Source: Candidatus Zhuqueibacterota bacterium
GTDB lineage: Bacteria; Zhuqueibacterota; Zhuqueibacteria; Residuimicrobiales; Krinioviventaceae
DNA length: 64,000 bases
Assembly (NCBI GenBank): GCA_034505495.1
Contig: JAPDQV010000001.1
Coordinates: 145,892-209,891 of the forward strand
Reading direction: 5' to 3'
The stretch's first letter is position 1, and each line of letters starts with the position of its first letter. Positions 3,009-32,864 of the stretch are shown here, piece by piece. The notes under the pieces are model-generated. The model was not told the origin of the DNA. It saw nothing but the letters and a program-made list of their open reading frames with translations, and ran no database searches. The translations under genes were made by a program, and so were the position numbers.

Positions 3009-6000
3009 TGCAGCGATTTACTGTTATTTTCATTTTTACCTTTTTGCTGTCAGGGGCTGTTTGGTCTGAACAAACAAACGGAGGTGCAAAGGGTCCGGTG
3101 GAAGAGGTCTATCAGGTGACCAGCCATCCGGAAGCCGACTTGGCGCCGCGCGTTTCAACGGACGGGAAATGGCTTGCCTATGTCAATCGGCAGAGCGGCA
3201 ATTACGATATTTATATTAAAAATTTACAGACGGGAAGAAGCCGCCGTCTGACCGATCACGAAGCGGACGACTATCACCCGGTTTGGGATAAAAAAAATCG
3301 TTATCTGATCTTTGTCTCGCAGCGAAGCGACGCCAAAGGCGACCTTTTTCGCCTCAATCTGCGTAATGTACGCGGCGAGTTGATCGCCAAAGGCAAACCG
3401 GAACGGCTGACGACCTATATGGGGTTCGACGGCCTGCCGACCATTTCTGAATATGATGAACACATCGCCTGGGTTTCCGATCGGACAGGCCGACCGGAAA
3501 TCTGGCTGATGACTAAGCGGGGCCAGGCGATTCGTCAATTGACGCACGGCGGAGCAACACATCCGGCCTGGAGTCCCAAACAGTCCTATTTGGCTTTTAC
3601 CAGTTTTCGTCAAGACGGCAGCAACGGCGATATCTGGCTCATCAATCTCTATGCGCCGCGCGAGTGGATCGAGGTGAGGACGCCGCTGGACAGCCTTGAG
3701 CGTCCGATGTGGCCTGTAACACGCGGTGAAGCCGCTGACGGCTTTCCAACTTGGTCCCCTGATGCCAAGACGATTCTTTTTTGCCGAAGTGATCACGACG
3801 ATAACGGCGACGGGCTGATCACTCCCTCTGATCGCTCGGTAATTTGGGCTGTCGACGTTTCGCATCTGCCGCAGGACCATCCTTCTTCCTTGAATCCTTC
3901 TTATCGCCTCTACCGCGAAACGTTCGATGAACGAATCGTTCACCGTGCCTGCCCGATTGTATCGGCTAAATACAATGCCGCGCAGCCTGAATACGGTATG
4001 GACGGCCGCATTTATTTTTCGTCCGAAATCAAAGGCAATTTTGACATCTTTTCACTGCCGGACAGCCTGCTGCATGGTCATCCGCCGTCTATCGATGACA
4101 TGCCTCCGCTGCCTAACGGACTGGCTGCCAAGGATTTGTCGATCTTTATTGATGAGCCGCCGGTGTGGAACGAAAGGCAACGGCGTCAGCTCTATGATCG
4201 AATTTATACCCTGCAAAGGATCATGGACAGTCCTCAGGCCGATGCGGAACAAATTGCCGGTGCTGCCTACGAGATCGCCGTATGTTCGCTGCTGTTGGGA
4301 GATTCGCTGCGCTGCGTGCGTCATCTCGATTTTATTCTCGCCGATTATCCTGCCTCCGAGGCGGCTCCATTTGCCGAGCTTTTGCGGACCAGGGTTTCCG
4401 AGGTACGCAAAGAAAATGAGGCGCAGAAACTGCGACTTTTGGAACAGGAGATCCTTCGCCTTCAGGCCGGCGCTGCACCGAGCCGTCGATTCGCCGCCGA
4501 ATCAGAGCTGCTCCTTGGTGCTCTTTATGAACGACAAGAAAGATTTGAAGATGCAGAAAAGGCTTATCGGCGGGAAACGGAAAAGGCGCAGGCTTTTCCG
4601 GATCTTGTCGGTGAGGCCCTGCTTCGTCTCGGACGTTTGCAAAAAACCGAAGGCAAATACGGTGACGCAATGGCCTCTTTTTTGTCGGCCATGAAAAACG
4701 GCGGCAAACCGGAAAAGCATGCCCAAGCACGCAGTGAACTGCTCGAAATGTTCACCCTCGGTGCTGCCGATGATGCAACGCTGCTCTCGCGCTATAAAAT
4801 GGTGATCCGCCGGTTTTTTGCCCTCGATGTTTTCGTCATTGAGCCGTTTTTGCGAATCGCGGAATTGCATGTGCGAAACGGCAGGCTGCAGGAAGCATTG
4901 GATCTCTATGACTTTCTCCAGGCCCAGTTTGCCGATTTGACCGACGAAGCCTTTGACATTCGCTTAGGACGGGCGCAGGTGCTCTATCGGCTGGGAGATT
5001 TGCAGCAGGCGGCAACCCTCTTGAGCGAAACGGCCGCACTTTATCGCCAAAATCGGCCCAAATTGGCCAAGCAGGCCGAAACGCAATTGACCGATATGCT
5101 CTACCACTCGGCTTTAGACCTGATGACGACTAATCAATACGGTCAAGCGGCCGCAAGGTTGAAAAAGGTGCTGGAAATCGATCCGCATCATTTGCCGGCG
5201 CATCAGAGCTACATCGAATGCGCATTTTTGCTCAATCAAATCGATCAGGTGTTGACGGAATATACTGAAGCCGTCCGGAATCATCCCGAAGATAACATTC
5301 TTCTCTACGCTCAGGGATTGGCTTATTCCTATAAAGGTGCCTCGATCTATCCGAATGGTTGTGAAACTTGGGTGACCAGTGCGGAGGCTTTGGAGCAATC
5401 GAATCAAATTCTCTACAAAGCGCTGGCCTTGGATTACAATCTAATCGATGCCTACCTGCTGTTGAGTTTCAATTCCGAACTATTGGAATCTTTTCAGAAT
5501 CGGCGACAGCGGGAAGCCAAAAGTTTTGCGCAAAAGGCTTTCGGTACAATCACGGCGCCGTTGGTTTGGCTTTATCACACAGTCACCTTTTACGAAGAAA
5601 CTAAACCGCCGAGATATTATGAAAGTGCCATTCAGGAGCTCACCCAGGCGATGGCGCTCAACGACGAAGAGCTCTATCCACGGCGCGAGGCGCTTCTGGC
5701 GCTCAATATGGCCAACAATTATTACAGCCTGGGCGAATTCGGGTTCCGCAAGGCTTATGAGTACTATCACACTTTTTTAAAGTATGACTCGACTTTTGCC
5801 GGTATGCCGCACGAGGCGTTAATCAAAGAACGGATGGGGCACTGTGCCATCTTTGTCAACGATCAGCTGCGGGGACCCAACTACCTCAAGCGGGCTATCG
5901 AGTTGTATGGTAAATTGAACAATCAGGAACGTCTTCTGCTTAATCTCAAACGGCTCGCTTTGCTCTATGAGGTCGGGGAAAATCATAGCGAGGCCTTACG

Positions 6001-23812: not shown

Positions 23813-24733
23813 ATGAATCGACGTCGATTCCTTCAGGTTGGCGCCATCGGTTTTGCCGGTATGGGGCTCGCCGGCTGCAGCGCGCGCCTGACGACACCCC
23901 TGTTCAAGATTTCTCTTGCCGAATGGTCTCTGCATCGAGCGCTGTTTGCCGGTGAAATCGATCATTTGGATTTCCCGCGCATCGCCAAAGAGCGCTTCGG
24001 CATCGATGGTGTTGAATATGTCAATCAGTTCTTTATGGATAAAGCTCAGGATCGCGACTATTTGAGCGAAATGAAGCGCCGCTGCCGCGATCTCGGCGTG
24101 ACGAGCGTGCTGATTATGTGCGACAATGAAGGACGCCTTGGGGATCCGAATGAAACGGCGCGCCTGCAGGCGGTGGAAAACCATAAAAAATGGGTGGAGG
24201 CGGCCAAATTTTTAGGGTGCCGCGGCATTCGCGTCAACGCCTACAGCGAAGGCGATTATAAGGAGCAGCAAAAATTAGTTGCAGATGGTCTGCGTCGGCT
24301 GGCGGAATTCGCCGATCCGTTCGGCATCAATATTTTGGTTGAAAACCACGGAGGCTTTTCTTCCAACGGCAAGTGGCTGGCGGAAGTGATGCGCATGACC
24401 GCTCATCCGCGCGTCGGCACGCTTCCCGATTTCGGCAATTTTCGTATCAGCGCGGACGAATGGTACGACCGCTACCAAGGCGTGGCCGAACTGATGCCTT
24501 TTGCCATGGGCGTCAGCGCCAAATCGTCGGAATTCAACTCGGAAGGTGAGGAGGTACGCAGCGATTTTTTGCGCCTGATGCGGATCGTTGCCCGTTCGGG
24601 CTATCGCGGCTGGGTGGGTATCGAATACAGCGGCACTCAGCTGTCCGAGATGGATGGGATCGCGTCGACCAAAAGGCTCCTTGAAAAGGTTCGGCGCCGC
24701 CTGACGGCAGAATTCCCCAAGTTCAAAGGATGA
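23813..24733 (+). CDS. sugar phosphate isomerase/epimerase (xylose isomerase-like TIM barrel), Tat-signal lipoprotein
   Basis: MNRRRFLQVGAIGFAGMGLAGCSA twin-arginine motif plus lipobox; ILVENHGG and WVGIEY motifs of AP endonuclease 2/xylose isomerase-like fold. Confidence 0.7.
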   Translation: MNRRRFLQVGAIGFAGMGLAGCSARLTTPLFKISLAEWSLHRALFAGEIDHLDFPRIAKERFGIDGVEYVNQFFMDKAQDRDYLSEMKRRCRDLGVTSVLIMCDNEGRLGDPNETARLQAVENHKKWVEAAKFLGCRGIRVNAYSEGDYKEQQKLVADGLRRLAEFADPFGINILVENHGGFSSNGKWLAEVMRMTAHPRVGTLPDFGNFRISADEWYDRYQGVAELMPFAMGVSAKSSEFNSEGEEVRSDFLRLMRIVARSGYRGWVGIEYSGTQLSEMDGIASTKRLLEKVRRRLTAEFPKFKG

Positions 24734-24759
24734 TGAATCACCGCATCACAGAGAGGTGC

Positions 24760-25857
24760 TCACTCCCGGACGCGGTCATCCAACAGTCTCTTGAGTTGCG
24801 CGCTGCTGCGCGGCGCCCAACCGAATGAGCGCCGCCAAACCTCGGCGCTTTCCATACAGAGGTAAATCGGAACATCGGCCGTATAGCCGCGGATCCAGCG
24901 GTACATTTTGGCGAACAGTTCGATGCGCAACGGCTTGAAATAGCGCAGCTTTTTGTCGATGCCGGGGAGCAGCTCGCCCAGGTAAATTCGGGATTGGGGG
25001 TGGTTTTTGCGAATCACATCCTCAAACGCTGCAGGATAGCGCAATGCTCCGAGGCTGATCCACGCGATGTTCTGAGGTCGAATGACGCGAAAGATCTGGT
25101 CGACTATCTCGCGATAGCCCTCTTCCCATTGGGGATACCAAATCATAGGGTCGAAATGAAATCCCAAACGATAACCGGCCTCTTGAACCTTCCGCGCCGC
25201 CTGCAGTCGTTCCTGCGGCGACGCCGAAGTCCCTTCATCGCTTTGATAAACCGCTTCGGCATTCATCGACCAGGAAACGATGGTGCGTCGGTTGTGCCTC
25301 AGCCCAAGGAGGTTCTCTACAAAGACGTTCTTGCTTTTCAGCTCCAGAACGGCGTTGCGTCGTTCGGCAAAAAAAGAAACCAGCTCGGGCGCCAGATTGA
25401 GGAACGGCTCGAAGGTGAGGCTGTCGCTCAGTTCGCCGGTGCCGACGCGGAAAAAGCTGTTTGAATTGGAAAATTTTTTCTCAAGTTCGGCAAAGAGATC
25501 ATCCCAATTGCAATAGACGGTAATCAGCGGCGTGTTGAGGTAACCCTGCAGCACGCAGTATGAACAGCCGAGGTCGCAGCCGGCGACGACATCCAGATTG
25601 TGGTAGAGGCAGCAGAGGTGATGCTTGGTGCCCGGACAAAGGCGCAGGAAGGGACCGCGCTGTTTGGCGAGCAGGAGAGCACCGCGCAAATCGCGGGTTC
25701 GGCCGGCGCCGGACAGAAGCACCTCCGCCTCCGTCGGCTCAACCGGGACATCCGGAAATTGCTGCAGCACTTTTTGGGCAAGCGGCGACCTGCTAACTGC
25801 CTCTTCGATAAAGATCATGCGGGGACGAAAAACTTCCGGCATAATCGTTTCCGTCAA
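24760..25857 (-). CDS. spore photoproduct lyase (SPL/SplB) family radical SAM protein
   Basis: CDLGCSYCVLQGY (CxxxCxxC followed by YCxLQ as in SplB); about 365 aa; start overlaps stop of ParB-like gene (4 nt). Confidence 0.65.
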   Translation of the reverse strand: MTETIMPEVFRPRMIFIEEAVSRSPLAQKVLQQFPDVPVEPTEAEVLLSGAGRTRDLRGALLLAKQRGPFLRLCPGTKHHLCCLYHNLDVVAGCDLGCSYCVLQGYLNTPLITVYCNWDDLFAELEKKFSNSNSFFRVGTGELSDSLTFEPFLNLAPELVSFFAERRNAVLELKSKNVFVENLLGLRHNRRTIVSWSMNAEAVYQSDEGTSASPQERLQAARKVQEAGYRLGFHFDPMIWYPQWEEGYREIVDQIFRVIRPQNIAWISLGALRYPAAFEDVIRKNHPQSRIYLGELLPGIDKKLRYFKPLRIELFAKMYRWIRGYTADVPIYLCMESAEVWRRSFGWAPRSSAQLKRLLDDRVRE

Positions 25858-26813
25858 ATCAACTTTACCAACTCGTCGATTTTCCCTTCGCGATACTGCT
25901 CTTCCAGCCAGTCGAGTCTATGGCGGAACTCCCGCGCCGAGCCGAAAGAAAAAACTACCGTCATCTCTTCATCCTGAAAGTAGGGTGCGTGGCTTATCGA
26001 GACGCCTTTCGGCGGCCGCATGCGCTTTATCAGCTCTGAAAAAGCTTTTTCCTGTTCGCTGTAGCGGGGGTAGCGCCTCTCCCATAGAATTTGTTTGAGC
26101 CGGTCGCTCTTTTGCGAAGGCGTTAGAGGCGCGTCAAGGACCTCGCGGAAAGCCGACAACTCGAGGAGCGCGCAAGGGGAGCTGTCGGCTAAACGCGCGA
26201 CATCCTGGAGAAGCAAAAGGAACTCACGCTGACGATTTTTACCCAACCGCAAGGTCTGAAAAAGCCGCCATATTGCGTCTCGATCTGCATCCGGCAACTC
26301 TGCCAGATCTTTGACGATTTCGAAGGAGAGACGGTCTTCTGCAGCCGCTTGCTGCCAATCCGACGGCAGGTCGGCGATCGGCGCAAAAAGAGCCAAGAGG
26401 TTCGGATTGCTGCCGAGGCGCATGAGCGGAAAAAAGCTGCGCCAGATTTCCTCATCCTTGACCTGCATAAGGCGCAGTTTTTTGATCGCCCAAGAGACTT
26501 CTGCGGCGTTGAAGGTGCGATGGGCGGCGTTTTCCGCCAGCGCAATGCGGAACCGCTCTGCCGGCGATGCGGGATCGGTTAAAATGCGGGCCTCGGCGCG
26601 GCTAAATTCGAGCTCGCGCAGAGCCAGAAAGCGGCGAAAGCCGCACACGATGCGCAGCCCGCCTTGCGGCGACGGTTCGAGGATCAAGGGGCTGAGCAAG
26701 CCTGCCAGCCGAATGGAATCCTTGAGCGGCTGCAGCGGGGCAAAGGAAGGCAGACGATAAAGATCGTCGTCGCTTATCTCCTGCAAATCGATTGTGACGG
26801 TTTGAGATGTCAT
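25854..26813 (-). CDS. ParB-like nuclease (ParB/Srx N-terminal) domain protein
   Basis: IVCGFRRFLALREL ... ALAENAAHRTFNAAE matches ParB N-terminal GxRRxxA / ENxxR motifs; no adjacent ParA; 1-nt stop/start overlap (TAATG) with upstream helicase. Confidence 0.6.
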   Translation of the reverse strand: MTSQTVTIDLQEISDDDLYRLPSFAPLQPLKDSIRLAGLLSPLILEPSPQGGLRIVCGFRRFLALRELEFSRAEARILTDPASPAERFRIALAENAAHRTFNAAEVSWAIKKLRLMQVKDEEIWRSFFPLMRLGSNPNLLALFAPIADLPSDWQQAAAEDRLSFEIVKDLAELPDADRDAIWRLFQTLRLGKNRQREFLLLLQDVARLADSSPCALLELSAFREVLDAPLTPSQKSDRLKQILWERRYPRYSEQEKAFSELIKRMRPPKGVSISHAPYFQDEEMTVVFSFGSAREFRHRLDWLEEQYREGKIDELVKLI

Positions 26814-29800
26814 TAAAATAAACTCAATTGTTTAACTTTTTTCCGCGGATCAATCCGGCTTTTTTCAGCCGAAACAAGCGATTCGGAAATTGCGCTTAGA
26901 AAATGAGAAGGTTCCTGCTGCACCATTTTGCCGTTGAGCAGTCGATTTTTTGCGTGCGTTAAAAAAAGGAAGCGTTTGGCGCGCGTCATACCGACGTAGA
27001 GCAGGCGCCTTTCCTCTTCGAGGTCGTTGCGGCCGAGGTGATGGGGAAGAATCCCCTCTTCGCAGGCGGCAATAAAGACGGCGGAAAACTCTAATCCTTT
27101 GGCCGCGTGCAGGGTCAGCAAGCGCACGCGGTCGGCGCGGGGATCGAGACGGTCGAGGCTTCGTTGAACCGCCAAGGCGTCGAAAAAGCGCTGCGGCTCG
27201 TGCTGAAACGCCGCCGCCCATTTCATTAGGCGGTCTAAAAAGCGAGCCGTCTGTTCGCCTGCCCTATTCTCCGGCAAATATTTCTTTATCAGAGAAAGCA
27301 ACGTTTCGGCCGATGTATCGGTGGGAAGATCGGCTGCTGCAGCGAGGTAGGAGCGTGCCGCCGTTTCATCGCCAAAGAAATCCCTGGCGGCGGCAAAAAC
27401 CGCCGCGTCTTCCTTTTTACGGGCAGCGGTCAGCAGCCGGTAAAGCGGCTCGTCGAGCATAAACGCATCGTCGGCATAGTCGTAAGGAATGCCCGATCGG
27501 TGAAAAGCTTCAATAAGCGCCGGCGCTGCGGCACGTGAGCGAAAGAGCACGGCAATGTCGCCGAAAGCGAGACGTGCTTCTGTTCGATCGACGCGTCCAG
27601 TGTCGAAAGAGAAGAAACCGGTACCTCCGACGAGCTGCTCCACAGTCTGCACGATGTATTCAGCCTCCGCTCGGTCAGTGACTGCATGATGGATGATGAC
27701 TTTGACCGGGTTTGAGGGGCTTTCAACAGAGACGGTTCGACGCCGGAGCATTTGCTGCGCCGCTGCGGAGATGATCGGCGTCGAACGGTAATTGCGCGAA
27801 AGTTTGATGATGCGGGCGTGCGGAAATTCCTCTTGGAAGCGTTCGAATAGTCGAGGTTCGGCGCCGCGAAAGCCGTATATGGCCTGGTCCGGGTCGCCGA
27901 TGGCGCAAAAATCCCTGGCCGAAAGCGCGAACAGACGGATGAGTTCGTACTGGATGCGGCTCAAGTCCTGGAATTCGTCTACGGCAACGATTGGAAATTG
28001 ACGCAGCATGGTTCTTCTTACCTCCGGTTTGAAGCGGAGGAGACGCAGAGGCAGGAGAATCAGGTCCTCCAAATCAACGGCGTCAAGTTCAATTAAAAGT
28101 TCTTCATAGCGGCGAAAAAGGGTCGTAAAGGCTTCGCCTTCCTTTTCCGACACCTCTTTAGGCAGCGAATCGGGAAGTATGCCGCGACTTTTGTAGAATG
28201 CAAGGCGAGGCCAAGGGATAGCCGTTTTTTCTAAGAGCGGTTTCAGAGACTCATGCAGTCCAGGATGTGTTGCCGGCTCAATAATCGAAAAGGAAGGGGT
28301 ACGTCCGGCAAAGGGTTCTTTCATTCGGCGCAAAATCTCGGCTCCAAAAGCGTGTAGGGTGGAGATGGTCATTCGCTCTGCGCGCGCACGACCGAGAAGA
28401 TGAGTGAGCCGTTCGCGCATTTCATCTGCGGCACGATTGGTAAAAGTTACAGCCAATACTTCCTCCGGTTCGGCGCTCCCTTCCTCGATGATCGCCGCCA
28501 ACCGATGAGTGAGGGTGCGGGTTTTGCCGCTGCCGGGACCTGCGATGATGAGCAACGGGCTGCCGCGATGCTCTACCGCCTGCCGCTGCTCCTCATTGAG
28601 ACCGAATGATTCAGCCGGAGGCTCGTTTACCTGAATTGTTTCGATCTGTTGTTCCGGTTTCCGAACGTCCTGCCTTTGCGGCTTTTCTGCCTTTGGAAGC
28701 TCAAAAAGAAGCTGCTGTCGGGCGATCTCTTCTCTTTCTCCGGGCAAAAAAATGCGGACCACACCGTACTCTCCGTCATATCCGGGCTCGGGCATGACTT
28801 TACCTTCCCGCATTCTCCTGATGGCCTCGGCAAGGAGGCTTCCGCCTGCGCGCTGAATGTCGGCAAGAGGCCTATCGAGGAGGATTTCGAGCTCGGGGCC
28901 CAGTTCGCCGAGCAAATAAAAGTAGCGTTCTTCGATTTTGGCTGCGGTTTTGCCGATGTTGGCGGCTTCCGCCAGCACTTCGGGCAGCGGTATGAGGCTG
29001 TAAAAGGGCTGAGCGGTCGGCGGCCGATAACCGACAGGCCGATCCGCCAGCTCGTCGACCCGATAGCTGACCCCTAGCACCAAAGGCTGATTGCAGACAG
29101 GGCAGACGCCGCGGTGCGCTTTGGTCTCTTCCGGCGTAAAGCGTACACCGCATTTTCGGTGACCATCCGCGTGATACTTGCCCTCTTCGGGAAAGAACTC
29201 GATGGTGCCGCCAAATCGGTTGGACGAACGGTTGCGCAGCGCGTCGAACAGGGCAGAATAACTCAATTCCGTCTCAAAAATATTGGCTTCTCTAGCCAGG
29301 TTCGCGGGAGAGTGGGCGTCCGAATTGGAGACGAGAGCATAGCGGTCGAGCTGTGACAGCCGCCAGTTCATCGGCGGATCACTGGACAGTCCGGTTTCCA
29401 TGGCGAAAATGTGCGGCGTTAGATCGCCGAAACACTCTTCGACCGTATCGAATCCCGATTTGGAGCCGAAAAGAGAAAACCAAGGCGTCCAGATGTGGGC
29501 CGGGATAAGCACCGCCTGCGGATCGACTTGAAGAAGAATCTCCAGCAGATCACGGGTATCGAGTCCCAGGATCGGTCTGCCGTCCGAGGTAATGTTGCCG
29601 ATCTTGGCGAGCTGCTCCTGGAGTTTTTCCGCCGCGGCAATTGACGGTACAAAAATGACGCTGTGCACTTTACGGACGCGGCCGCCCTTTTTGTAAATGG
29701 TGCTGATTTCGCCCGAGAGGATAAAGCGGACTGCCCGACGACACGAAGCGGGCACCGCCGGAGACAAGTTTTGCGTAAATTCGCGACGCAAAGCAAAGAG

Positions 29801-29986
29801 GCCCTCCTCGGCCTCGGCCAGCTTGGTTTTGATCTCTTCCAATCTCCCGGGGTGGGTAATGTCTCCTGTCGCAACGACGGACAAACCTTTGAGTTGCGCC
29901 CATTGATGGATGTGCTCCAGGTCCAGCTCTTTGCTGGTGGCGCGGGAGAAAGGCGAATGAATATGCAGATCGGCAAAATAGCGCAT
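26813..29986 (-). CDS. EndoQ-like PHP-domain endonuclease fused to UvrD/PcrA-type SF1 helicase
   Basis: N-terminus MRYFADLHIHSPFSRATS...LKGLSVVATGDITHP resembles endonuclease Q PHP domain plus Zn ribbon (CGVRF...CPVC); followed by Walker A AGPGSGKT, motif II VDEFQD and UvrD_C region. Confidence 0.8.
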   Translation of the reverse strand: MRYFADLHIHSPFSRATSKELDLEHIHQWAQLKGLSVVATGDITHPGRLEEIKTKLAEAEEGLFALRREFTQNLSPAVPASCRRAVRFILSGEISTIYKKGGRVRKVHSVIFVPSIAAAEKLQEQLAKIGNITSDGRPILGLDTRDLLEILLQVDPQAVLIPAHIWTPWFSLFGSKSGFDTVEECFGDLTPHIFAMETGLSSDPPMNWRLSQLDRYALVSNSDAHSPANLAREANIFETELSYSALFDALRNRSSNRFGGTIEFFPEEGKYHADGHRKCGVRFTPEETKAHRGVCPVCNQPLVLGVSYRVDELADRPVGYRPPTAQPFYSLIPLPEVLAEAANIGKTAAKIEERYFYLLGELGPELEILLDRPLADIQRAGGSLLAEAIRRMREGKVMPEPGYDGEYGVVRIFLPGEREEIARQQLLFELPKAEKPQRQDVRKPEQQIETIQVNEPPAESFGLNEEQRQAVEHRGSPLLIIAGPGSGKTRTLTHRLAAIIEEGSAEPEEVLAVTFTNRAADEMRERLTHLLGRARAERMTISTLHAFGAEILRRMKEPFAGRTPSFSIIEPATHPGLHESLKPLLEKTAIPWPRLAFYKSRGILPDSLPKEVSEKEGEAFTTLFRRYEELLIELDAVDLEDLILLPLRLLRFKPEVRRTMLRQFPIVAVDEFQDLSRIQYELIRLFALSARDFCAIGDPDQAIYGFRGAEPRLFERFQEEFPHARIIKLSRNYRSTPIISAAAQQMLRRRTVSVESPSNPVKVIIHHAVTDRAEAEYIVQTVEQLVGGTGFFSFDTGRVDRTEARLAFGDIAVLFRSRAAAPALIEAFHRSGIPYDYADDAFMLDEPLYRLLTAARKKEDAAVFAAARDFFGDETAARSYLAAAADLPTDTSAETLLSLIKKYLPENRAGEQTARFLDRLMKWAAAFQHEPQRFFDALAVQRSLDRLDPRADRVRLLTLHAAKGLEFSAVFIAACEEGILPHHLGRNDLEEERRLLYVGMTRAKRFLFLTHAKNRLLNGKMVQQEPSHFLSAISESLVSAEKSRIDPRKKVKQLSLF

Positions 29987-30060
29987 GGGGGATTGCGTTC
30001 CAGAATTCGGTGGTTAGGATCAACGTTTTGAAAAAGACTATCGCGGCTTTCCGCCGGTCA

Positions 30061-30088
30061 AAAAAAAGGCGGATTGTATCCGCCTTTT
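30061..30088. terminator. bidirectional rho-independent terminator
   Basis: A7-GGCGGAT-TGT-ATCCGCC-TTTT: perfect 7-bp GC-rich stem flanked by A-tract and T-tract; sits between convergent... downstream of minus-strand small ORF/OMP operon and upstream of helicase promoter. Confidence 0.55.
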
Positions 30089-30111
30089 CGATGCGCGTTT
30101 CGAAGCGGTAA

Positions 30112-30288
30112 TCAAACCTTGACTTTGTCCCACGTTTCCTTGCTGACAAATTTCGTTAGGCTGCGGCCGTCGCTGGTTTTTCCCTTGAGGGCATAGCGCT
30201 GTTTGCCGGGTTCACCGTACGTTACCTTTTCTACGACATCGGCCTGCACCGATTTTCGCAGCTTGACGTCATAAAAGGTTTCTTTCAT
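30112..30288 (-). CDS. small conserved-looking protein (58 aa), unknown function
   Basis: Strong SD GGAGG 7 nt upstream of ATG; MKETFYDVKLRKSVQADVVEKVTYGEPGKQRYALKGKTSDGRSLTKFVSKETWDKVKV; followed by terminator; not in ORF track (<60 aa). Confidence 0.4.
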   Translation of the reverse strand: MKETFYDVKLRKSVQADVVEKVTYGEPGKQRYALKGKTSDGRSLTKFVSKETWDKVKV

Positions 30289-30337
30289 GAGAAAACCTCC
30301 TTTTAATTAGGTGTGCAATCAACAAGCGCCGAACGGC

Positions 30338-30970
30338 CTAAAACGGCGACACCGATAAACCTGCGGCGAATCGCCAACCGCCGATGCTTTTTTCTTCAAA
30401 ACCGGTTCGGCCGCCAACTCCTCCTGAGGCGACTTCAGCCTCGAGGTAAATGACGGCTTTTGAAGTCGCAAGATACTCGACCGCTGCTTCCATGTAAAAA
30501 CCGGAACCCTGTTGTTTACCGGCGGCGCCCGAAGAATTGCCTGCCAGGACAAATCGGTTCCCAGTTTCGTCGATAAAATAGAATGCCGCTCCGAATCCGT
30601 AGTAGGAGCCCCAGCGGCCGTCCGGAAGCCTCCGAATGCGCACGCCTGCTTTCAGCCATTTTTCTTTCCATGAGGATTCCATGAAACCCTCAGCAGCGGT
30701 TGGATTGTCAGCACGGCGGTAAAAAGAACCGTACTTGGCCGATGCATAAGCTGTTCCGTAGAACCGCACGGCGGCAAAGCCGCCGAATCCGCCTCCCCAT
30801 CGGCTTTCGTAGACCTGCTCAAAATCTTTATGGGAGATGCGGAAAGCGCCGTAATCTCCGCCAAGGATCAATCGCGGAGGTTCGGCAGGTTTTAACTCTT
30901 TGTACCACTGAGCCGAGACGCTGCCTACGAGGCAAAAAACAGCATAAAGAAGACGCTTTACCATAGCCAT
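30338..30970 (-). CDS. outer membrane beta-barrel protein (OmpW/OmpA-like small porin fold)
   Basis: Signal peptide MAMVKRLLYAVFCLVGSVSAQ; alternating amphipathic beta strands; C-terminal aromatic residue (…GLSVSPF). Confidence 0.55.
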   Translation of the reverse strand: MAMVKRLLYAVFCLVGSVSAQWYKELKPAEPPRLILGGDYGAFRISHKDFEQVYESRWGGGFGGFAAVRFYGTAYASAKYGSFYRRADNPTAAEGFMESSWKEKWLKAGVRIRRLPDGRWGSYYGFGAAFYFIDETGNRFVLAGNSSGAAGKQQGSGFYMEAAVEYLATSKAVIYLEAEVASGGVGGRTGFEEKSIGGWRFAAGLSVSPF

Positions 30971-31332
30971 CCGCGCTTTTGCATAAATATTACCATGCGT
31001 CTGAAAGCGCAAAGGGCCGTACAGGTTCCCAATAAATTGGCTGCAGCATCCAACGGATCGAACAATCTGCCTGGAATCCAAATTTGCACCGTTTCATCGA
31101 TAAGGGCAAAAAAGATCGAAAAAAGTGCTGCCCGTTTAACCGCACGCGGGAGGCCAATTATTTCATATTTGCTAAAGTTCCTTGCGGCCAACCAGGCAAG
31201 CAGAAAAAACGCGAGAAAATGAGCGGCTTTGTCCTGCTCATCGAATCCCAGATCGGGCAGCTCAACTTTTGGAGACCAGGTCAAATACAACAAAAGGATA
31301 GACCACAGGATCAGCGGCCCTTGCCATTTCAT
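30958..31332 (-). CDS. VanZ-like family membrane protein
   Basis: DKAAHFLAFFLL ... DETVQIWIPGRLFDPLDAAANLLG matches VanZ family DK..H / DE..Q..pgR..d..D..aN motifs. Confidence 0.6.
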   Translation of the reverse strand: MKWQGPLILWSILLLYLTWSPKVELPDLGFDEQDKAAHFLAFFLLAWLAARNFSKYEIIGLPRAVKRAALFSIFFALIDETVQIWIPGRLFDPLDAAANLLGTCTALCAFRRMVIFMQKRGWLW

Positions 31333-32864
31333 AGCGGCGCCGCGTTTTCTATTTCCATGAGCGCCTGAGGGACGTTTCTCAGCAGATCGCCGGCGATCAT
31401 GCCCGCTTGGCCGAGCTTCTCGGCGGCCAAATCTCCCGCCAGGCCGTGGATAAAGACGCCGGCTGCGGCGGCATCTTTGGGCGTCAGTCCCTGCGCCAGC
31501 AACGAAGCAATCAGTCCGGTCAGCACGTCGCCGGTTCCGGCGGTGGCCATACCGGCGTTACCGGTCGAATTGATGTACACGCTGCCGTCCGGCGCGGCAA
31601 TGACCGTCGGCCCGCCTTTAAGGACCAGCGTGCATTTCCATTCCTTGGCAAATCGGGCTGCGGTCTCTACCGGTTCGGCCGTTATTTGGTCTGCCGAAAG
31701 GCCGGTAAGTCGGGCCAGTTCGCCGGCATGCGGAGTGAGAACCAGTCCGCGGCGATGCGCCGCAAACAGCTGCGTATGGCCGACGCAGGCGTTCAGCCCG
31801 TCCGCGTCGAGGACCAACGGCCTGTCGATCTGCAAAAGAAGGCTCTTGATCAGCGCCTGGGTCTCGGGATCGCGGCCCATGCCCGGTCCTACGGCCACGG
31901 CATCTTTTGTAGCGGCTTGTTCCAAAAGAAGGGGCAGCGAGGCGGCGGTGAAGCGGCCGACGTCGCCGGTGGGCAGGGTGATGACTTCGGTGAGCTTGGT
32001 CTCATAGATGACGTTGAGATCGCTGGGAGTTGCCAGGTATACGAGACCCGCGCCGGCGCGCAGTGCTGTTTCCGCGGTCAACGAGGCGGCGCCGGTAAAA
32101 CCGCGCGATCCGGCGATGACCAGCACTTGGCCGCACTGCGTTTTATGGGCGTTCGGCGCGCGGCGAGGCAGCAGTTTTCCCACGTCTTCTTTTTCGAGGC
32201 GGTATATGCGCGGATCGTGTGCGGCAATCAAAGCCTGAGGCATACAGATGTCGACGATTTCGATGCGGCCGCAATGCTCTCTGCCGGGAGAAAACAGCAG
32301 GCCTCGCTTCATTAGCGCCATGGTAGCCGTCAAATCCGCCTTTACGGCTATGCCTTCGACGGCGCCGGAATCGGCATTGACCCCAGTTGGAATGTCGACG
32401 GCTACGATCGGCGCGCCCTGCGCCTGCAGGTGCGCGACGGCCTGGGCAATGAGACCGCGCAGGCTGCCGCGAACGCCGGTTCCCAGCAGCGCATCGACGA
32501 TCAGATCCGGCTTTTCTTTCGGCAGGTCTTCGGCCGACTGCACGATGCAGGGGGTAATGCCGAATTGCACCAGCCGCTCGAAATGAAATCGGGCGTCGGG
32601 AGTCAGCTTATCTTTTACTGAGAGCAACAGGACGGCAGGCTCGAAACCACGATTTTTCAGATAGCGGGCAATGACAAATCCGTCGCCGCCGTTGTTGCCG
32701 GGTCCGCAGTATATATGAACCGTCCTGAAGCGAAAGCGGTCTAAAATCAAGTCGACGACGCCGCGTCCGGCATTTTCCATCAACAGAATGCCCGAAAGAG
32801 CGAACTGTTCGATTGTCAACCGATCCAACTCGGCCATTTGAGCTGCCGTAACGACGACCTTCAC
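31329..32864 (-). CDS. nnr: bifunctional NAD(P)H-hydrate repair enzyme (epimerase + ADP-dependent dehydratase)
   Basis: YjeF-N motif GPGNNGGDG and C-terminal carbohydrate-kinase-like LVIAGSRGFTGAASL; GTG start with GGAGG SD, GTGA overlap with acpS stop. Confidence 0.85.
   Translation of the reverse strand: MKVVVTAAQMAELDRLTIEQFALSGILLMENAGRGVVDLILDRFRFRTVHIYCGPGNNGGDGFVIARYLKNRGFEPAVLLLSVKDKLTPDARFHFERLVQFGITPCIVQSAEDLPKEKPDLIVDALLGTGVRGSLRGLIAQAVAHLQAQGAPIVAVDIPTGVNADSGAVEGIAVKADLTATMALMKRGLLFSPGREHCGRIEIVDICMPQALIAAHDPRIYRLEKEDVGKLLPRRAPNAHKTQCGQVLVIAGSRGFTGAASLTAETALRAGAGLVYLATPSDLNVIYETKLTEVITLPTGDVGRFTAASLPLLLEQAATKDAVAVGPGMGRDPETQALIKSLLLQIDRPLVLDADGLNACVGHTQLFAAHRRGLVLTPHAGELARLTGLSADQITAEPVETAARFAKEWKCTLVLKGGPTVIAAPDGSVYINSTGNAGMATAGTGDVLTGLIASLLAQGLTPKDAAAAGVFIHGLAGDLAAEKLGQAGMIAGDLLRNVPQALMEIENAAPL

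Follow-up and report, generated by a model that had tools for sequence, protein, structure and literature searches.

A candidate DNA-repair operon joining an EndoQ–UvrD fusion to a ParB-like protein and an SPL-like radical SAM enzyme

Why are an endonuclease for damaged bases, a helicase, a ParB-like protein and a radical SAM enzyme encoded side by side on one strand? This question is raised by three genes in a 64,000-nucleotide stretch of DNA (the window) from a Candidatus Zhuqueibacterota bacterium. The explanation favored here, held with moderate confidence and drawn from sequence, is that the trio is a KSB1-lineage-specific repair operon. Under one promoter it would combine two independently widespread DNA-maintenance modules that are co-regulated and probably act on different lesions. 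The features of the locus are as follows.

24760–25857, minus strand: gene 3, SPL-fold radical SAM enzyme, 365 aa, TTG start
25854–26813, minus strand: gene 2, ParB/Srx N-domain, HTH-like middle and C-terminal X domain, 319 aa
25857–26396, minus strand: X domain of gene 2, residues ~140–319, seen also in X-only ORFs and X-SPL fusions
26813–29986, minus strand: gene 1, EndoQ–UvrD fusion, 1057 aa, from the ORF
26948–28600, minus strand: SF1A UvrD/PcrA-type helicase module of gene 1, residues 463–1013, from Pfam
28751–29986, minus strand: EndoQ module of gene 1, residues 1–412 (PHP nuclease, zinc ribbon and C-terminal helical domain), from the 5zb8 alignment
30066–30086, no strand: palindromic hairpin AAGGCGGA-N5-TCCGCCTT followed by a T-run, terminator-like, the 5' boundary of the operon

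The initial annotation described three minus-strand genes coupled by 1-nt and 4-nt overlaps, and both the ORF list and the letters at the junctions agree. Between genes 1 and 2 (...TTT TAATG ACA) the stop TAA and the start ATG share base 26813. Between genes 2 and 3 (...GAT TTGACG) the start TTG overlaps the stop TGA at 25854–25857. An alternative in-frame ATG start for gene 3 lies 15 nt downstream of the TTG. The hairpin occurs once in the window, with 0 copies expected by chance. Seven of nine trio loci carry its exact stem (AGGCGGA...TCCGCCT) upstream of the trio, against 0 of the 82 non-trio loci compared. Locus L001 has a variant stem (GGGCGGA...TCCGCC), and the L014 contig ends short of the hairpin position. 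A search upstream of the operon found neither a recognizable LexA-type box nor any other sign of control by DNA damage.

The EndoQ–UvrD fusion

Gene 1 had been read as an EndoQ-like PHP domain with a zinc ribbon, fused to a complete UvrD/PcrA SF1 helicase, and both halves of that reading hold. Residues 5–412 align with residues 5–382 of PfuEndoQ (5zb8; E=3e-43). The EndoQ family model TIGR00375 covers residues 5–409 at 161.6 bits, below the NCBIfam full-length cut-off of 326.6 for this 'hypothetical equivalog' model made from stand-alone proteins. The motifs DLHIHS (6–11) and SNSDAHSP (220–227) are present. The metal ligands (H8, H10, E93, H109, H164, D223 and H225) are all identical to those of the two-metal PHP site of EndoQ (His8, His10, Glu76, His84, His139, Asp193 and His195). 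The lesion pocket, compared at EndoQ His139, Thr142, Glu167, Leu168, Gly169, Leu170, Ser171, Asn191 and Asp193, is identical at eight of the nine positions; the exception is Leu168, a main-chain contact, which is replaced by Thr. Pocket residues of gene 1 include T167, E198, G200, L201, S202 and N221, and the wedge W169 corresponds to EndoQ Trp144. The zinc ligands are H275, C279, C295 and C298 (HCCC), differing from the C4 set of EndoQ (Cys249, Cys252, Cys268 and Cys271) in having His first. With ligands, pocket, wedge and ribbon all in place, the N-terminal half is a real EndoQ (TIGR00375 / PF27218) and not a generic PHP protein.

In the second half, the Pfam UvrD-helicase model is covered over its whole length (3e-69; 234 bits) and UvrD_C (119 bits) is matched, both over the Pfam gathering scores; UvrD_C_2 is matched too. 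UvrD/PcrA-type models span residues 462–1037, with the Walker A motif GSGKT at 485–489 and DEFQD at 670–674, and the N- and C-terminal UvrD domains are complete. Assignment as a PcrA, UvrD or Rep orthologue was rejected (374, 270 and 324 bits against equivalog cut-offs of 911, 1144 and 951). Orthologues of the whole fusion, 1058–1070 aa long, occupy the same position in L001, L008, L009 and L011.

Because the catalytic and pocket residues are conserved, gene 1 is predicted to nick 5' of dU, dI or an AP site, as known EndoQ does. The EndoQ part would flip a deaminated or missing base (uracil, hypoxanthine or AP site) into a pocket closed to thymine and adenine, and would cut immediately 5' of the flipped base. 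As both domains are fused, the nick may then be handed over to the attached SF1A helicase, which would unwind from it so that the damaged stretch is displaced and resynthesized. EndoQ has been described as archaeal, with few bacterial homologues (PMC4357722). The domain was found to be plentiful in bacteria, as a stand-alone protein and in fusion with UvrD (at least 8000 matches, thousands of them bacterial), and the matches listed include names from Chloroflexota, Actinobacteria, KSB1, Omnitrophota and Sumerlaeota.

The ParB-like/SPL-like pair

The N-terminal fold of gene 2 is ParB/Srx, with a ParB_N score slightly below the Pfam threshold. Box II (GxRRxxA) is represented by CGFRR at 57–61, in which G58, F59 and R61 are invariant or nearly so across the family, and by A64, present in the window protein and in the family consensus. 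The [E/D]N motif is E94 and N95, the latter nearly invariant (consensus DNxxxRxLNPxE), and the Arg of box III (ENxxR-type) is displaced by one position. The middle region is similar to a ParB-type HTH or helical DNA-binding domain. As the initial annotation had it, this is a ParB/Srx N-domain protein without ParA: no ParA gene was present in any neighborhood with called genes. A canonical partition ParB was rejected, since a ParA partner is lacking and the canonical C-terminal dimerization domain is replaced by the X domain. The latter carries the motifs LGKNRQRE (190–197), TPSQK (231–235) and RYPRY (247–251), has no sequence match in Pfam, NCBIfam or PDB, and has no ParB homology. In most lineages it is attached to a ParB/Srx N-domain. 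It also exists free of that domain, as an ORF of ~190 aa adjoining the SPL-like gene in L062, L075, L081, L083 and L090, and it is joined to the N-terminus of the SPL-like enzyme in L073 and L089, which belong to two lineages. The conserved core of the pair is the X domain with the SPL-like enzyme.

The SplB-type radical SAM signature noticed in gene 3 is genuine: the CxxxCxxC cluster motif is present as CDLGCSYC (94–101), within the SPL-specific overall fold. Also retained are K174 and S195, which contact SAM, and R273, the contact to the backbone phosphate. The H-atom donor of SPL, Cys140 (Gt numbering; Bs Cys141), is an invariant Glu, E142, in the SPL-like family. In the loop of the Clostridium-type H-donor (Cys77), an invariant Cys may correspond to that site, at C82 in the HMMER alignment and at C74 in the MAFFT alignment. 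Tyr98 of the radical-return chain (Bs Tyr99) is V102 in the window protein and, among 79 family sequences, Ile in 50, Val in 18, Tyr in eight and Ala in three; Tyr339 falls beyond the alignable fragment. The spore photoproduct (SP) base contacts to thymine O4 are changed, Arg193 to S195 (Ser) and Glu268 to the invariant G270 (Gly). Further residues are invariant in the SPL-like family (C74, C82, C83, C334, H234, D236 and E336), as is R305–Y306, which could match the SPL hairpin tip Arg304/Tyr305. Scores on the curated models are far short of their cut-offs (TIGR04070, 109.9 bits against 400; TIGR03886, 52.8 against 437), and with the SP-repair residues missing, gene 3 was rejected as a canonical SP lyase. 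For the same reason the suggested direct reversal of thymine-dimer-type photoproducts cannot be assumed.

What, then, might the pair do? The remodeled substrate pocket points to a lesion other than the classical spore photoproduct. The SPL-like enzyme would apply 5'-deoxyadenosyl-radical chemistry to such a lesion, flipped out of nucleic acid, and its fold, partner domains and neighbors suggest that this nucleic acid is DNA. The X domain of gene 2 would be its obligate partner, and gene 2 may load on DNA in an NTP-dependent manner and bring or activate the radical enzyme there. Most likely the pair repairs DNA damage by chemistry as yet undescribed. Neither an EndoQ–UvrD fusion nor a pairing of ParB with SPL was described in the literature searched, which agrees with the first reading of the combination as no described pathway; the ParB-X/SPL-like module looks new to the literature.

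Distribution and competing explanations

The trio recurs in nine other contigs (L001, L008, L009, L011, L012, L014, L015, L016 and L019). It corresponds to one terminal clade of candidate division KSB1 in the SPL tree, within which L013 is without it, so that the co-occurrence across phyla raised in the initial annotation is not seen. Across phyla, it is the pair that is conserved. In 66 of 75 assessable genome loci the SPL-like gene has a ParB-like or X-only gene beside it or fused to it. These loci come from KSB1, Calditrichota, Zixibacteria, Thermodesulfobacteriota, Binatia, Acidobacteriota and WOR-1, and the phyla with the pair are mostly anaerobic. EndoQ–UvrD is absent from most loci of the pair, and in L092 and L093 it occurs without ParB or SPL genes.

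A DNA context is seen for the pair in three independent arrangements: with EndoQ–UvrD, with ssb, which adjoins it divergently in 14 other KSB1-type loci beside pyrimidine-salvage genes, and with a gene for an EVE modified-base reader, inserted in the trio loci L009 and L015. By distribution, the commonest third partner is not a repair gene. A family-2 glycosyltransferase (GT2) gene lies directly upstream of the pair on the same strand in 19 loci of at least five phyla. It is one orthologue (45–58% identity across phyla), found also beside X-only forms in Binatia and Acidobacteriota, and repair alone does not account for it.

Do the three proteins work as one machine? EndoQ would incise, UvrD unwind, the ParB-like protein clamp or recruit, and the radical SAM enzyme reverse or process either that lesion or the exposed strand. 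All trio loci, including those with ParB identity as low as 32%, retain the 1-nt and 4-nt overlaps or have near-abutting junctions, and the conserved overlaps could reflect a real complex instead of mere co-regulation. The conserved hairpin gives the genes one shared 5' boundary, and L028 holds EndoQ–UvrD within 3.3 kb of the pair. EndoQ also cuts at 5,6-dihydrouracil (PMC8307549), a saturated pyrimidine, as is the 5' moiety of the spore photoproduct. However, the association arose once, in a single clade, and each module is far commoner alone. The intact EndoQ pocket shuts out C5-methyl pyrimidines, and PfuEndoQ leaves CPD and 6-4 photoproducts uncut (PMC4357722). Since a pocket that excludes thymine is intact, a common lesion for genes 1 and 3 is unlikely, and so, in our judgement, is the single-machine explanation; we do not think that genes 1–3 form one obligate incise-unwind-reverse machine. 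Of the initial annotation, all three domain assignments hold, and its interpretation is supported in part.

A distinctly improbable alternative is that the pair modifies DNA bases: the SPL-like enzyme would functionalize a base (e.g., a pyrimidine C5-methyl), GT2 would glycosylate the product and the ParB-like protein would spread the activity, with EndoQ–UvrD and EVE policing or reading modified or aberrant bases in KSB1. The specific GT2 orthologue, the EVE genes and the pyrimidine-salvage neighbors are consistent with this. The invariant Cys, Glu, His and Asp residues of the SPL-like family, E142 among them, suggest an auxiliary metal site and acid-base chemistry not found in SPL. Yet GT2 was not found in the window or in the 10-kb flanks of other KSB1-type loci, except L044. 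The enzyme belongs to a generic TuaG/EpsE-like type, for which no DNA acceptor is known. Restriction, methyltransferase and other self/non-self components are lacking, and inheritance looks vertical, in a housekeeping context and with no phage or plasmid copies. A more specific form, which we consider very improbable, is oxygen-independent functionalization of the pyrimidine C5-methyl in DNA by X-SPL and GT2. The radical SAM enzyme would make the thymine allyl radical of SPL, then oxidize and hydrate it with the extra invariant Cys site and the Glu, His and Asp residues. GT2 would glycosylate the product, and the activity would spread along DNA through the ParB-like domain; in KSB1, EVE would be the reader and EndoQ–UvrD the clean-up. 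If true, bacteria would have an anaerobic counterpart of base J synthesis.

It is also quite improbable that the X/SPL-like pair has a substrate other than DNA (RNA, a protein or a small molecule) and adjoins EndoQ–UvrD by neutral synteny. The loss of the SP base contacts from gene 3 and the X domain, without sequence-level homology to any DNA-binding family, would fit such a substrate. ParB/Srx folds include kinases and sulfiredoxin, and pairs of GT2 and radical SAM enzymes are known in small-molecule pathways; the GT2 here weakly matches the mycofactocin MftF and arsenosugar glycosyltransferase models. Against this stand the retained phosphate contact and the possible counterpart of the SPL hairpin tip in gene 3, the HTH-like middle region of gene 2 and the three DNA-metabolism contexts.

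A DNA-targeting defense module was raised in the initial annotation. Anti-phage defense by a helicase-nuclease of UvrD type and its accessory proteins, as in Gabija or with DRT-associated helicases, is close to refuted: the PADLOC GajB-type and RTasHel models match the helicase region of gene 1 strongly, but only as generic UvrD homology in an incomplete system with no GajA-like partner, genes 2 and 3 have no PADLOC match, the trio sits in a stable housekeeping block across divergent genomes (GNAT, ECF sigma, ACPS, YjeF, VanZ ... M3 peptidase, DUF4921) with no compositional anomaly, searches of plasmids, phages and IMG/VR contigs found no relatives, and nothing else speaks for defense or mobility.

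Comparison with known systems

UvrD, PcrA and Rep are SF1A helicases of nucleotide-excision and mismatch repair, where their unwinding starts at a nick. The predicted nick-then-unwind logic of gene 1 resembles that of UvrD after UvrC or MutH incision, with the difference that gene 1 carries its nicking enzyme on the same polypeptide. The layout of PHP domain, zinc ribbon and helical domain in PfuEndoQ (PF1551) and Bacillus EndoQ matches gene 1 end to end. Archaeal EndoQ then ends in a PCNA-interacting tail (PMC8307549), whereas gene 1 has a full UvrD-type helicase there.

SplB (G. thermodenitrificans, 4FHC; B. subtilis) has SplA as its partner, whereas that of gene 3 is ParB-X, and unlike those of SplB the hosts of the SPL-like enzyme are non-spore-formers. 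In other phyla, a LexA-regulated 'splB' (COG1533) and an operon of a radical SAM gene with a UDG-like gene have been put forward as repair candidates (PMC4951493). Such SOS-regulon genes of the SPL superfamily and radical SAM type occur, like gene 3, in non-spore-formers and in genomic linkage to DNA repair, but no ParB-like or X-domain partner has been reported for them (PMC4951493). Gene 3 differs in subfamily from the LexA-regulated splB, and no LexA box was found upstream of the trio.

Gene 2 shares the ParB/Srx N-domain with GxRRxxA with the ParB-family CTP switches and the ParB-like accessory NTPases of DNA-modifying enzymes, among them PadC (6RYK), KorB and Noc. In contrast to these, its C-terminus is a novel X domain able to exist without the ParB part. 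The ParB-like accessory NTPase of the Dpd 7-deazaguanine system is DpdB. Gene 2, beside the predicted DNA-acting gene 3, is similar to DpdB with DpdA, and what sets it apart from ParB-like accessory NTPases is that its enzyme partner is a radical SAM protein.

The operon and its upstream region

The three genes lie on the minus strand of a window that was assigned to candidate division KSB1. They encode an EndoQ-UvrD fusion (gene 1), a ParB/Srx-type protein (gene 2, or ParB-X, with X denoting its C-terminal part) and a radical SAM enzyme resembling spore photoproduct lyase, SPL (gene 3). The ORF listing reproduced the coordinates of the initial annotation exactly. The overlaps it had claimed were read at the junctions as 1 nt (TAATG) and 4 nt (TTGA), and every motif it had quoted is present in the genes. 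The GC content of this trio is not unusual relative to its flanks.

Features of the operon and its surroundings
23813-24733, plus strand: Tat-signal xylose-isomerase-like TIM barrel (Pfam AP_endonuc_2), convergent, downstream of the trio
24760-25857, minus strand: gene 3, SPL-like radical SAM enzyme, ORF of 365 aa
25854-26813, minus strand: gene 2, ParB-X, ORF of 319 aa
26813-29986, minus strand: gene 1, EndoQ-UvrD fusion, ORF of 1057 aa
30066-30086: hairpin with a perfect stem (AGGCGGA-N5-7-TCCGCCT) and T-run, after the 58-aa ORF
30112-30288, minus strand: 58-aa ORF with a strong Shine-Dalgarno sequence, upstream of the operon

Since the 58-aa ORF and then the perfect hairpin with its T-run precede gene 1, the trio very probably forms a separate transcription unit. 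The stem sequence is identical in seven of the nine loci that carry the trio (L008 4518, L009 4213, L011 4686, L012 989, L015 5250, L016 5168 and L019 5797); the L001 stem differs by one base, and the L014 sequence stops short of this position. In the window the stem occurs a single time, and it was found in none of the 82 non-trio loci compared, which total about 1.3 Mb. Such conservation is unusual for a plain terminator, and the hairpin could be a regulatory or attenuator element. LexA-type boxes, which the initial annotation had raised for this region, were not found in the 330 nt upstream in the nine trio loci using Gram-positive, E. coli and TGTAC-type palindrome patterns, which may not be the motif of KSB1 itself; only the terminator-like hairpin surfaced. 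An Rfam scan of 24000-31500 gave chance-level matches only, and a promoter/terminator consensus scan gave no excess over shuffled expectation.

The 58-aa ORF is 78-100% identical in L001, L008, L012 and L016, whereas the ParB-like protein is 38-47% identical in L001, L008 and L016 and 90% in L012. It had no match in Pfam, NCBIfam or PDB, and may encode a small abundant nucleic-acid-binding protein. The same site, 5' of the hairpin, holds a DUF5679 zinc-ribbon ORF in L009 and L011, and also in L019 as judged by its zinc-ribbon-like sequence. L011 (about 4620-4680) and L019 (about 5745-5795) have a further stem, GGGGGAGG...CCTCCTC, which sits between the zinc-ribbon ORF and the conserved hairpin and may be a structured leader or small RNA. 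The convergent gene at 23813-24733 was considered as an Endo IV-like repair partner and rejected on its orientation, its Tat signal and its generic TIM barrel. Despite its Pfam name, it is unlikely to encode an Endo IV-type repair nuclease.

The radical SAM enzyme and its partner across genomes

The nearest homologue of gene 3 is 94% identical, and the entire trio is found at 90-93% identity in L012. Homologues of gene 2 supplied 11 neighbourhoods for the survey, and the SPL alignment supplied 80 genome loci. The trio, with the same flanking housekeeping genes, was present in L001, L008, L009, L011, L012, L014, L015, L016 and L019, among which ParB identity falls as low as 32%. Co-occurrence of the three genes across phyla, which the initial annotation had put up for testing, was not borne out: the trio loci form one terminal KSB1 clade of the SPL tree. 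As an operon, the trio is restricted to one lineage, and it draws attention to a radical SAM/ParB module that is large, uncharacterised and amenable to experiment. In most loci surveyed, the ParB-like gene lies directly upstream of the SPL-like gene, and the hosts of this pair include KSB1, Calditrichota, Zixibacteria, Thermodesulfobacteriota, Acidobacteriota and others.

At several loci X is found beside the enzyme without the ParB N-domain, as an ORF of about 190 aa corresponding to the C-terminal ~170 residues. At two others, the SPL-like enzyme carries the helical half of X at its N-terminus as a fusion; the stretch kept there corresponds to residues ~140-256 of gene 2.

Stand-alone and fused forms of X
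L062 588-1154: stand-alone X
L075 9411-9995: stand-alone X
L081 9454-10014: stand-alone X
L083 9349-10008: stand-alone X
L090 1384-1974: stand-alone X
L073 3786-5207: X-SPL fusion, 474 aa
L089 9548-11053: X-SPL fusion, 502 aa

Both forms are basal in the SPL tree. X is adjacent or fused to the enzyme in 66 of 75 assessable loci and clearly missing in eight. X is best regarded as the true partner of the radical SAM enzyme, and the ParB N-domain, and later EndoQ-UvrD, as accretions onto this putative core. ParB-X is also found alone directly downstream of purC (encodes SAICAR synthase) in L006 (2749-3741), L007 (1575-2567) and L010 (2015-2974), overlapping purC in the first two. These ParB-X proteins are the most divergent, and no SPL-like gene lies within the flanks of the three loci.

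The description of gene 2 as ParB/Srx was upheld for the ParB fold and the nucleotide motifs; no partition-system feature, be it a neighbouring ParA gene or the C-terminal dimerisation domain, was found. Its sequence matches to ParB N-domains are weak, and the family alignment keeps the boxes GxRRxxA (CGFRR) and DNxxxRxLNPxE. For the final ~130 residues no convincing structural or sequence relative was found, and the family as a whole has no model in Pfam or NCBIfam. A word-indexed search returned 49 matches and suggested a rare family, but this was overturned by an exhaustive profile search, which gave 1791 50%-identity clusters at E<=1e-30.

Gene 3 was compared with SPL in a HMMER alignment and by aligning 79 members of the family and the Geobacillus sequence in MAFFT, both read against the structure paper (PMC3467042). 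The SPL fold that had been proposed was confirmed, with a Pfam SPL score of 110 bits. The cysteines of the cluster are kept, as are K174 and S195 at the SAM-contact positions and R273 at the phosphate-contact position. The invariant R305-Y306 may match the SPL hairpin tip Arg304/Tyr305, and the enzyme probably contacts the nucleic-acid backbone. The initial annotation linked this fold to direct reversal of thymine-dimer-type photoproducts, which cannot be taken for granted in gene 3, as it does not match four of the features that define spore photoproduct (SP) lyase. The score against the SP-lyase equivalog TIGR04070 is also 110 bits, against a cut-off of 400. The position of SPL Cys140 is an invariant Glu, 68 of 79 sequences have Ile or Val in place of Tyr98, and the thymine-O4 contacts Arg193 and Glu268 are replaced by Ser and Gly. 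The family has its own invariant residues (C74, C82, C83, C334, H234, D236 and E336), one new cysteine matching the Clostridium-type H-donor position in a register that varies with alignment method. As judged from these residues, gene 3 shares its fold and cofactor handling with SPL and differs in substrate and/or chemistry.

The EndoQ-helicase fusion

Residues 5-409 of gene 1 fit the EndoQ family model TIGR00375, and residues 5-412 match residues 5-382 of the solved PfuEndoQ (E=3e-43). Functional residues were judged from alignment against the lists in the structure papers (PMC5961232; PMC8307549). In PfuEndoQ numbering, all metal ligands (H8, H10, E76, H84, H139, D193, H195), the wedge Trp144 and the lesion pocket (H139, T142, E167, G169, L170, S171, N191, D193) are kept. 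The sole pocket change is at Leu168, a main-chain contact, and the zinc ribbon is HCCC rather than the CCCC of reference EndoQ. The EndoQ-like assignment thus stands on metal, pocket and wedge residues alike. H139, G169 and S171, which are said to exclude thymine and adenine sterically in EndoQ (PMC5961232; PMC8307549), are intact. The full UvrD/PcrA helicase claimed for the C-terminal part was recovered as a complete SF1A type (residues 463-1013); judged by NCBIfam family models, it is not orthologous to the housekeeping enzymes PcrA, UvrD and Rep.

EndoQ has been described as archaeal with few bacterial homologues (PMC4357722). In contrast, EndoQ-domain proteins proved very common in bacteria: the EndoQ part alone gave at least 8000 matches at about 60% identity. 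Those listed comprise stand-alone proteins of about 428 aa, which are the majority, and UvrD fusions, with bacterial sources including Chloroflexota, Actinobacteria, KSB1, Omnitrophota and others. In the source databases, some stand-alone EndoQ proteins bear the label 'DNA helicase UvrD/PcrA'.

On the long contigs L092 (7001-10499) and L093 (7001-10197), EndoQ-UvrD has no ParB-like or SPL-like neighbours and is broken by frameshifts into two or three overlapping ORFs, which are either assembly frameshifts or pseudogenes. Proteins of 500-700 aa were considered as a shorter architecture and rejected as fragments of such frameshifted full-length genes, which explain many 'partial' database entries of this size.

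From its conserved catalytic equipment, gene 1 would cut the strand 5' to dU, dI or an AP site, and its helicase would start unwinding from that nick. The fusion would then be an alternative-excision route inside one polypeptide, which hints that deaminated bases can be removed by nicking and unwinding in a self-contained way.

Function, competing readings and precedents

Genes 2 and 3 are partners in the genome, a link regarded as obligate that extends to natural fusions. Gene 3 has the SPL fold with its contacts to SAM and phosphate; gene 2 has an HTH-like region and the signature of a ParB-type NTP-binding site. DNA-metabolism genes neighbour the pair in three arrangements that are independent of one another: EndoQ-UvrD in the trio, ssb, and EVE. 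In 14 further KSB1-type loci (L017, L018, L021, L022, L024-L031, L042, L052), ssb lies next to the ParB-like gene at a distance of about 200 bp and points away from it (e.g., L029 8370-8792). It is followed by a pyrimidine-salvage block of cytidine deaminase, a uridine kinase-hemerythrin fusion, thymidine kinase, PNP/UDP phosphorylase and a CNT nucleoside transporter. The upstream 'genes' unk261, unk205 and unk561 obtained by ORF clustering were discarded as shadow ORFs antisense to ssb and the salvage genes. An EVE gene (PUA-like, modified-base-binding) lies between the conserved hairpin and EndoQ-UvrD in L009 (4290-4757) and L015 (5326-5781). We infer that gene 2 could be a ParB-like, NTP-dependent DNA loader or adaptor that brings gene 3 to DNA, where the enzyme would act on a flipped-out lesion other than classical SP.

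The favoured reading, to which we give an even chance, is that the two modules are separate, co-regulated repair activities. It is preferred because the EndoQ pocket excludes thymine and because each module is mostly found alone. The same two facts speak against one integrated machine of genes 1-3, which we consider unlikely. A DNA-modification role for the pair is less probable again; it draws on the main unexplained fact, the association with a family-2 glycosyltransferase (GT2) gene. In 19 loci, which come from at least five phyla and include X-only forms, the gene immediately 5' of ParB-X or X is one specific GT2 orthologue, read from the same strand (L005 6968-7804, L035, L036, L044, L045, L047, L054-L056, L059, L060, L064, L066, L067, L075, L081, L083, L087, L090). 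The orthologues are 45-58% identical across phyla, their divergence tracks that of the SPL-like gene (r=0.93), and a small Rho_N/SAP-like protein often precedes them. The window itself lacks this GT2 gene. Desulfacinum infernum DSM 9756 (L082) has the pair, and its 10-kb flanks showed no GT2 gene either. The GT2 association argues more weakly for a non-DNA substrate of the pair, which is a still more doubtful proposal. Defence, also suggested initially, is very unlikely, as PADLOC gave generic helicase matches only and the gene 1-3 subfamilies were found on none of the plasmids, phages or IMG/VR contigs searched.

Gene 3 represents a large sister family in many non-sporulating, mostly anaerobic phyla, with fold and DNA-phosphate contact kept, the active site rebuilt and a dedicated partner. 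The family leads directly towards a new radical chemistry on DNA, which might be a novel base modification or might repair the kind of damage that is typical when cells are anoxic or dormant. The coupling of a ParB-type protein with an enzyme widens the emerging view of ParB/CTP switches as general DNA-loading devices. EndoQ is frequent among bacteria, where it often comes with a fused UvrD helicase. All three points are testable by standard anaerobic biochemistry.

The components all belong to known superfamilies (EndoQ, UvrD, ParB/Srx and SPL). The initial annotation had not recognised their combination as a described pathway. Neither the ParB-X/SPL-like pair nor the EndoQ-helicase fusion was found described in the literature searched. 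DpdB is a ParB-like accessory NTPase of a DNA-modifying enzyme. Accessory NTPases of the DpdB type are one of the nearest conceptual precedents. The others are LexA-regulated splB and the operons that join a radical SAM enzyme with UDG (PMC4951493).
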